The notes below the pieces were generated by a model. It was not told where the DNA came from and did no database searches. It saw only the letters and a list, made by a program, of their open reading frames with translations. From IMG/VR virus record IMGVR_UViG_3300020383_000006, positions 1-64,000 of that record: a stretch of 64,000 bases of DNA; one strand, given 5' to 3'. Each line of letters begins with the position of its first letter. Positions within the stretch are counted from its first letter, which is position 1. Positions 34,759-59,546 of this stretch are shown here, in pieces. The translations under genes were made by a program, and so were the position numbers. The DNA comes from a virus.

Positions 34759-34834
34759 TGGTGCCCCACGACTGGGTTCGAACCAGCAACCCTCCGATTA
34801 TGAGTCGGACGCTCTACCGTTGAGCTACGGGGGC
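34759..34834 (-). tRNA. tRNA with CAT anticodon, probably Ile2 (lysidine)
   Basis: GCCCCCG acceptor (C4-G69, C5-G68 as in Ile2), TCCGA-CTCATAA-TCGGA, TTCGAAC, CCA; one bulged U in the acceptor stem. Confidence 0.85.
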
Positions 34835-34840
34835 ATTAAG

Positions 34841-35484
34841 TGGTGGTTCCCTAGTCAAGGAGATACTATGAACCACCTGCTAACGTTATTATCAGTTTTC
34901 CACGAGACCATGTACAGCCTATCTGATTTCCTTAATAAAAATTCTATTCAGGCAGGGATTACCACTAATTAGCTTGGACACCCTCTTTTTCTTCTCAACT
35001 ACCAAACAACAAGGAGGTAATTAAGCGAGATATAACTCTCACAAGTGACAAATTGCTTTAGAATTGAATCTAGCCACAGTTAACTCAACTCCAGAGCCGC
35101 TATATTTCAGTTTTATGATGAGTGCCCTTAGCGGTAAGGACTCATTCTTTTAGGGCGAACCCATTTTACTGATTACTATGCACCTAACGTCCATGACCGC
35201 TTGCGACTTACTAATAACCAGTAAAATGGGTGGTACACTACGCAGTACCCAGCGGAATATTTGGTGACAAGGCTAATTATTCGGGCGAAAAGCTCCACCA
35301 CAGAGCTTTTCTAAGCCTTGATGGCTAGTAGCTTATTAGGCTACCGCTGCCATATTAAAGTGTGAATCGTTTGCAGTTATAACGATTAATTACAGTTGCA
35401 AATAAGGCGACGACTCCCTACCTGACTCGGTGCGGTTAACACCTGAAAACCTAAACTTGATTTAGGCTTTTAGCTATTAACTAC
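34841..35484 (-). ncRNA. Large tmRNA-like structured RNA lacking a canonical tRNA-like domain
   Basis: Own promoter; ATAACT-GCA resume context, tag ANDSHFNMAAVA** (35374-35336), H5-like hairpin, pseudoknots, long-range helix; no protein ORF. Confidence 0.7.
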
Positions 35485-56329: not shown

Positions 56330-56404
56330 GGGGAATTAGCTCAGCGGTAGAGCGACTGCCTGTTAAGCAGTTGGCCATTGGTTCGAATCCAATATTCCCC
56401 GCCA
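56330..56404 (+). tRNA. tRNA-Asn(GTT)
   Basis: ACTGC-CTGTTAA-GCAGT, GCCA. Confidence 0.95.
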
Positions 56405-56409
56405 ATTTT

Positions 56410-56487
56410 GGGTCGGTAGCCAAGTCAGGTGAAGGCAATGCACTTTTAATGCATGGATCGAAGGTTCAAATCCTTCTCGACCCACCA
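56410..56487 (+). tRNA. tRNA-Lys(TTT)
   Basis: ATGCA-CTTTTAA-TGCAT, ACCA. Confidence 0.95.
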
Positions 56488-56492
56488 ATTTT

Positions 56493-56564
56493 GGGGCTGG
56501 TTCTTGGTGACGGAAGATGGTTTGCAACCATTTGAGGAGGGTTCGATTCCCTCTAGCTCCACCA
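56493..56564 (+). tRNA. tRNA-Ala(TGC) with reduced D region
   Basis: GGGGCTG/TAGCTCC with G3-U70 and A73; GATGG-TTTGCAA-CCATT. Confidence 0.8.
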
Positions 56565-56571
56565 AATACAG

Positions 56572-56677
56572 ATTATTTTGTACTGGCGCAATACATGAGT
56601 TCTTTCCTAGGTTTTTTAAAAAGGCTCCGGCTTCCGCTGGCTAATAGGTTGAATGCGGGGCGTCAGTACAAAATAAT
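56572..56677 (+). ncRNA. ~106-nt structured RNA
   Basis: 18-bp closing stem ATTATTTTGTACTGGCGC/GCGTCAGTACAAAATAAT between two tRNAs. Confidence 0.55.
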
Positions 56678-56684
56678 TTTAATT

Positions 56685-59463: not shown

Positions 59464-59546
59464 ACTGACGTAGTCGTGCTAAGCTACGAACTTAGTAAGC
59501 GTAAATGGATCTGAAAATGTAGGTTCGAATCCTACCGTCAGTGCCA
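59464..59546 (+). tRNA. D-armless tRNA-Arg(ACG)-like RNA
   Basis: Perfect acceptor ACTGACG/CGTCAGT-GCCA, GCTAAG-CTACGAA-CTTAGT, canonical T-arm. Confidence 0.75.

Follow-up and report, generated by a model that had tools for sequence, protein, structure and literature searches.

A conserved compact-core form of tRNA-Ala(UGC), probably functional, in the tRNA array of an uncultured phage

Closest described systems: The canonical tRNA-Ala(UGC) (RF00005; 76 nt) has a 7-bp acceptor stem with G3.U70, followed by A73 and CCA, a canonical T arm, a 7-nt anticodon loop with U33, UGC and A37, and a core made of the U8/N9 linker, A14 and a 4-bp D-stem (10-13/22-25). In the tRNA-like domain (TLD) of tmRNA the D-loop is reduced and stemless and the anticodon arm is missing; helix H2 lies in its place and the gap is filled by SmpB (PMC3968760). 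The TLD-only ('CDS-less') tmRNA of mycobacteriophage DS6A is a small RNA of 83 nt with an Ala acceptor stem, a T arm, a reduced D region with GG (D-loop ending UCGAC) and, in place of an anticodon loop, a 5-bp stem around an irregular insert of ~20 nt (PMC4131195, PMC11915505). D-arm-reduced tRNAs of animal mitochondria (PMC7609411) are working decoders with shrunken cores in which the canonical tertiary contacts are absent, and they are served by adapted translation factors.

Compact tRNA-Ala(UGC), 56493-56564 (+): The window, i.e., the whole stretch of 64,000 nt that was analysed, covers the initial 64 kb of a record of 145.5 kb (34% G+C) from an uncultured phage. The RNA encoded at 56493-56564 is 72 nt long including an encoded CCA; it was called tRNA-Ala(tgc) by ARAGORN, was accepted by the Rfam tRNA model (34.8 bits, cut-off 29; the lowest among 21 tRNA matches in the window) and scored 88.1 bits with a family covariance model (R1) built from five members. 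It is probably a functional tRNA-Ala(UGC) of the phage, of a conserved compact-core type. The preliminary description, which had quoted the sequence exactly (72 nt on the + strand, G3.U70, A73, encoded CCA, TGC anticodon, no U8 or A14), proposed a free-standing TLD or one half of a split tmRNA and kept a tRNA-Ala with a correct TGC anticodon as a fallback; the fallback is borne out by ARAGORN, by the Rfam tRNA model, by the covarying stem and by the invariant UUGCA of the loop.

tRNA array: ARAGORN found 24 tRNA genes in the phage, all of them inside the window: two are at 34.8-35.7 kb, and the other 22 make up an array at 55.2-63.4 kb. Every one of the 20 amino acids is covered by this set, but only when the gene at 56493-56564 is counted as Ala; the phage has no other Ala tRNA. 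It is separated from the preceding tRNA-Lys gene by a 5-nt spacer, AUUUU (56488-56492), and 5-nt U-rich spacers are likewise found in both tRNA pairs upstream; the encoded CCA is also common to this gene and its neighbours. The Ala codons in the long ORFs of the phage are GCU (861), GCA (573), GCG (239) and GCC (163), most of which would be served by a tRNA with a wobble U. The region was recovered in assembled contigs from marine sequencing runs, where the tRNA-Ala is unchanged in related strains and its flanks vary. It was also present in an RNA library, in which it may represent carried-over DNA.

Secondary structure: The 5' strand of the acceptor stem (GGGGCUG, 56493..56499, +) pairs with UAGCUCC (56554-56560) to give 7 bp including G3.U70 and G7.U66, and is completed by the discriminator A73 and the encoded CCA (56561..56564, +). 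The T arm (GAGGG/UUCGAUU/CCCUC, 56537..56553, +) is canonical, as seen from the sequence, the Rfam alignment and family covariation. The anticodon arm (56515..56533, +) consists of a 6-bp stem, A23-U41 to G28-C36 (AGAUGG/CCAUUU), and the 7-nt loop UUUGCAA, which holds the anticodon UGC (56523-56525, +), U33 and a purine at position 37. Only 15 nt lie between the acceptor stem and the anticodon stem. They are occupied by a hairpin that begins directly at nucleotide 8 (GUUCUUGGUGAC region, 56500..56511, +; G8-C19, U9-A18, U10 bulged, C11-G17, i.e., 3 bp; loop UUGGU with an invariant GG) and by the linker GGA (56512..56514, +), which is nearly invariant in alignment A2. The variable region is the nearly invariant trinucleotide GAG (56534-56536, +).

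In comparison with the canonical tRNA-Ala, the acceptor stem with G3.U70, the A73, the CCA, the T arm, the anticodon loop and the location in a phage tRNA array are alike, whereas the U8/N9 linker, A14 and the 4-bp D-stem are absent (position 8 is G and position 14 is not A), as is a variable loop of 4-5 nt; instead there are a 3-bp D hairpin, a 6-bp anticodon stem and a 3-nt variable region, in 72 rather than 76 nt. The absence of a normal D-arm had been pointed out before; the arm is indeed not canonical, but the RNA is not armless, the 3-bp hairpin being backed by covariation. A conventional D-stem, as drawn by the Rfam model, is not supported: position 11 varies among the family members and its supposed partner, the GG of the linker, does not. 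GGA (56512-56514) and GAG (56534-56536) could pair as tandem G.A and lengthen the anticodon helix, in which case the four helices would abut without linkers; the stack of anticodon helix and D hairpin would then be about as tall as the anticodon stem, D stem and tertiary layers of a canonical tRNA.

Covariation (12 aligned members): Standard pairs were found in 96.8% of cells (slid controls, ~50% pairing); the covariation score was 0.447 (shuffles, 0.165; none of 500 shuffles as high). The inner pair of the D hairpin is CG in 4, GC in 4 and AU in 3 members, and its loop is of 4-5 nt with GG invariant. Both-sided changes were observed in 4 of the 6 pairs of the anticodon stem, the outermost of which is AU in 8, UA in 3 and GU in 1 member. 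G3.U70 and UUGCA were each found in 12 of 12 members; the consensus of the loop in the family is YUUGCAM. The term 'degenerate', which had been considered for this tRNA, is not appropriate to a compact form that is conserved and covaries in many phages.

Distribution of the family: A full-length 71-nt homologue (79% identity) was found by BLAST in 291 Vibrio phage GenBank records of ~114 kb, D419 and 234P1 among them. In the record inspected (D419) it lies within the tRNA cluster, unannotated and overlapped by 'hypothetical protein' calls. Further members were collected with patterns in which the letters of acceptor and T arm, or those of the D region, were fixed and the anticodon loop was left free. 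The metagenome scan gave 23 matches, of which 15 are true members (71 nt, 8 distinct sequences), each at a locus with other tRNA genes; the other 8 are chance matches that do not have the shape of a tRNA. All 15 carry the 7-nt loop YUUGCAM, i.e., U33, UGC and A37, which the search had not constrained, and the same holds for 8 of the 10 IMG/VR matches of ≤73 nt; the IMG/VR members are L107, L110, L113 and L116, and L087-L089 came from an earlier pattern. A second subclass (G001, G002, G007, G010 and G013) is distinguished by a 4-bp D hairpin (CUGU/ACAG, GUGU/ACAC or CCGU/ACGG) with the loop AUGGG and by the T-loop AUCGUUA. Two contigs from bacterial MAGs (L173, L195) also contain true compact tRNA-Ala(UGC) genes. 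Two members of the second subclass that carry a permuted tmRNA have the compact tRNA-Ala(UGC) close to an ordinary tRNA-Ala(UGC): in G010 (L131, 13458-13610) the two genes adjoin, and in G001 (L105, 15313-15630) they are ~170 nt apart.

No full-length compact tRNA-Ala was found by BLAST of phage records in any Escherichia or Salmonella phage; an RtcB-based search for relatives (80 loci) gave neither close phage relatives nor a compact tRNA-Ala, the neighbouring 225-aa protein used as bait gave no relatives, and an exact 19-mer and a close-relative pattern gave 0 matches each in IMG/VR. A published description of the compact form was not found, and phages are not mentioned in the review of non-canonical tRNAs (PMC7609411).

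Detector scores: With the Rfam tmRNA model 56493-56564 gave 23.4-31.9 bits (cut-off 47, not reached); the alignment rests on the acceptor and T arms only, the D region having low posterior probability, and similar scores were obtained with ordinary tRNA-Ala genes. In the comparison of tRNA and tmRNA covariance models suggested earlier, the RNA passed the tRNA model (34.8 versus 29 bits) and failed the tmRNA models (<47). The D419 homologue gave 24.8 bits with the tRNA model (below the cut-off of 29) and 38.2 bits with the tmRNA model (below 47). The family model separates the members (79-89 bits) from ordinary tRNA-Ala (36-42 bits) and from the DS6A TLD-only RNA (35.8 bits). About half of the family members seen were missed by ARAGORN.

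Proposed function: The tRNA would be transcribed within the ~8-kb tRNA array and then trimmed like its neighbours. It would be charged by the alanyl-tRNA synthetase of the host, and since this enzyme asks for no more than an acceptor stem carrying G3.U70 and A73, the core could become smaller and the identity still be kept. In the predicted fold the 3-bp D hairpin starts from nucleotide 8, with a GG loop that presumably contacts the T-loop; the four helices would abut almost without linkers, and the anticodon helix, lengthened to 6 Watson-Crick pairs and possibly by the GGA/GAG G.A pairs, would keep the distance from anticodon to elbow. The UGC anticodon would read GCA, GCG and GCU codons. Consistent with decoding, the compact gene is the only Ala tRNA found in D419, in G004, in G007 and at every close-relative metagenome locus; in the complete genome of D419 all Rfam tRNA matches lie at 62.8-72.6 kb, and the others are without G3.U70. 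Several observations weigh against a decoder. The canonical tertiary contacts U8-A14, 9-23 and 15-48 are impossible, and the L shape is a prediction; in the subclass of G001 and G010 the vicinity of an ordinary tRNA-Ala(UGC) hints at a separate role for the compact gene; the same compact D hairpin occurs in TLD-only, tmRNA-like RNAs that have no Ala anticodon arm; the D419 homologue does not reach the Rfam tRNA cut-off; and among nine records of compact-form carriers that were examined, that of this phage included, there are four with a tmRNA, and this phage has a tmRNA-like RNA. The mitochondrial tRNAs provide a parallel for decoding, here predicted, with a reduced core; they differ in belonging to animal mitochondria, whereas the compact family occurs in bacterial phages and keeps a GG/T-loop elbow and a defined hairpin.

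TLD-only RNA of the DS6A kind: According to the best surviving alternative, 56493-56564 is a 'mini-tmRNA' that would be charged with alanine and, by binding SmpB and EF-Tu of the host, would titrate or bypass trans-translation; its UGC loop would be incidental or have another purpose. This is considered unlikely, and the evidence on it is divided. Its Ala acceptor stem, its T arm and the reduction of its D region do resemble a TLD, although an Ala-accepting stem with CCA and a T stem-loop are common to tRNA-Ala and TLD and do not discriminate between them. The DS6A RNA, which reportedly inhibits tmRNA (PMC4131195, PMC11915505), has the same general make-up and is likewise missed or under-called by standard tools, but its irregular insert takes the place of the true Ala anticodon arm and covarying D hairpin of the compact RNA. 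The D419 homologue scores higher on the tmRNA than on the tRNA model; against this, no tmRNA-model score reaches the cut-off, and the values for ordinary tRNA-Ala genes are similar. One subclass adjoins an ordinary tRNA-Ala; in this phage, on the other hand, removal of 56493-56564 would leave the otherwise complete tRNA set short of Ala and of no other amino acid. An anticodon arm of textbook form, with an invariant UUGCA and a covarying stem, makes up the middle hairpin, and the D region also has a covarying stem, whereas the D-loop of a TLD 'has no stem' and SmpB takes the place of anticodon and D stems (PMC3968760), both of which are present here.

The scaffold also occurs with middle hairpins that are irregular and not of the Ala type, in RNAs of phages (L112, L118) and of bacteria. 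The former are TLD-only-like and possess the compact D hairpin from nucleotide 8, as does, more loosely, the DS6A RNA; the hairpin being common to them and to the tRNA-Ala, the scaffold therefore hosts decoders and non-decoders. The likeness of the D region to that of a TLD, on which the TLD proposal had partly been based, holds for the hairpin at nucleotide 8 and is limited to it. On many bacterial contigs (L167-L215, e.g., L167, L184, L207, L168 and L208) RNAs of 70-74 nt with G3.U70, a D hairpin from nucleotide 8 and irregular non-Ala middle hairpins were observed in Acidimicrobiia (sometimes in tandem), Patescibacteria (Falkowbacteria, Peribacteria), Rhodobacterales and Terriglobia; they look like TLD-only mini-tmRNAs. 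One further candidate, in G013 (197509-197627), was rejected as a mini-tmRNA; it resembles a tRNA whose anticodon loop carries an insert.

Large tmRNA-like RNA, 34841..35484 (-): This structured RNA (fold z-score -7.8) matches positions 86-140 of the Rfam tmRNA model with 10.2 bits and contains a tag frame, ANDSHFNMAAVA, followed by two stop codons (35374-35333, -). A tRNA-like domain was not found in it by ARAGORN or by inspection, and there is no acceptor strand; no homologue was found by BLAST in 50,697 phage records or in the fetched loci, and the phage has no gene for SmpB. At 35291..35300 (-) it carries UGGUGGAGCU, 10 nt that are perfectly complementary to the tRNA-Ala's 3' end, AGCUCCACCA, and that lie in a local hairpin, in its loop and its 3' strand. 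In an exact-complement test this was the longest complement among the 24 tRNAs (P ~0.02 for Ala alone, 0.47 for any tRNA), and AGCTCCACCA occurs only twice in the genome, in the tRNA-Ala and, on the opposite strand, at 35291-35300. The RNAduplex energies of the tRNAs with the large RNA are dominated by long loops and were uninformative.

Two readings connect the two RNAs. According to the first, compact Ala RNAs may bridge tRNA-Ala and the TLD of tmRNA, being decoders with a TLD-type D hairpin that can also engage the machinery of trans-translation; here the tRNA-Ala would dock through the 10-nt complement to the tag RNA and deliver or regulate a phage-specified tag. We regard this as improbable. 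According to the second, which is still less probable, the tRNA-Ala is the alanyl-acceptor partner of the large RNA, and the pair would make up a split tmRNA by association in trans. A precedent for a tmRNA built of two RNA chains is given by the two-piece (permuted) tmRNAs (RF04321, RF01849-51), in which each chain also supplies one strand of H2. In favour of an association, both RNAs occur in one phage, the complement has a P of ~0.02 when Ala alone is considered, and the tag has GCA as its resume codon. Both pieces of a two-piece tmRNA are said, in work by Keiler, Shapiro and Williams from 2000, to come from one gene, each giving one strand of the acceptor stem. Here the tRNA-Ala is self-contained, closing its own acceptor stem and anticodon arm; pairing of the 10-mer would need unwinding of the acceptor stem, and the large RNA brings no acceptor strand; 21 kb separate the two genes, which are on opposite strands, and a complement of this length is expected by chance in some tRNA with P = 0.47. 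The Rfam permuted-tmRNA model (RF04321) gave 19.8-20.9 bits versus a cut-off of 47, and ARAGORN in permuted mode found nothing. The match of that model at 56537-56668 (19.8 bits) was discarded, as it consists merely of the T arm, the CCA and the GGGGCG of a downstream hairpin stem; there is no room for a coding piece, because the tRNA-Thr gene follows at once.

The preliminary description had also asked whether the compact RNA and the large RNA occur together across phages; co-occurrence of the compact RNA with tmRNA-like RNAs is not obligate. No standard tmRNA, permuted tmRNA or Vibrio-type tag was found in the complete genome of D419, which carries the compact tRNA-Ala, and four carriers (G001, G002 and G010 with permuted tmRNA, G003 with standard tmRNA) have complete tmRNAs with their own TLDs; the acceptor stems of these tmRNAs differ from that of the compact tRNA in G001-G003, where the sequences were compared. 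The covarying D hairpin, the canonical anticodon arm and the failure of the tmRNA models speak against the proposal of a free-standing TLD or split-tmRNA half. A decaying tRNA-Ala pseudogene, for which the lowest Rfam tRNA score in the array and the lack of U8 and A14 could be quoted, is scarcely credible at all, given an architecture conserved with compensatory changes across unrelated phages, the absence of substitutions in related strains and the status of the gene as the sole Ala tRNA of the phage.

Implications of the compact tRNA-Ala(UGC): In the Vibrio phage record that was inspected, the GenBank annotation lacks a conserved alanine tRNA, and the homologue in question is present in 290 more records; with about half of the members seen missed by ARAGORN and the D419 homologue short of the Rfam tRNA cut-off, the tRNA repertoires of phages are under-counted. 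The family is a natural example, from a bacterial translation system, of a tRNA in which four helices meet almost without linkers, and it offers a test case of how much of the canonical core is needed by the bacterial ribosome, EF-Tu, RNase P and the modification enzymes. Shrinkage is limited in this array to the alanine tRNA, which fits the rule that alanine identity resides in the acceptor stem only. Because the same scaffold also carries non-decoding middle hairpins in the TLD-only-like RNAs, the family may inform on the origin of the TLD of tmRNA from tRNA-Ala.

Other RNAs and neighbourhood: A further tRNA-like gene without an ARAGORN call is present at 59464-59543 (+; Rfam tRNA 37.8 bits); its acceptor and T arms are normal and its D/anticodon region is irregular. 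Degenerate tRNA-like genes without an ARAGORN call were also seen in the T5-like cluster of D419 (L099/L100; record positions 69194, 69946 and 72549), one of them with a 9-nt loop containing UGC and without G3.U70. Directly 3' of the large RNA lies a tRNA(CAU) gene (34763-34834, -), which has two acceptor-stem mismatches in the Rfam register and is placed 6 nt after a hairpin ending ...GAACCACCA. Between the tRNA-Ala and tRNA-Thr genes an element at 56570-56679 (+) forms a 20-bp stem around ~70 structured nt (MFE -39.1 kcal/mol, z -4.5), and its conservation extends to related marine strains; like the T4 RNAs known as species 1 and 2, it may be a stable small RNA from the tRNA operon. On the other side of the tRNA-Ala gene, related strains (runs X5 and X7) have different sequence in place of the block 56367-56492, which comprises the end of tRNA-Asn and the tRNA-Lys; the break falls exactly at nucleotide 1 of the tRNA-Ala, suggesting a modular exchange of tRNA genes.
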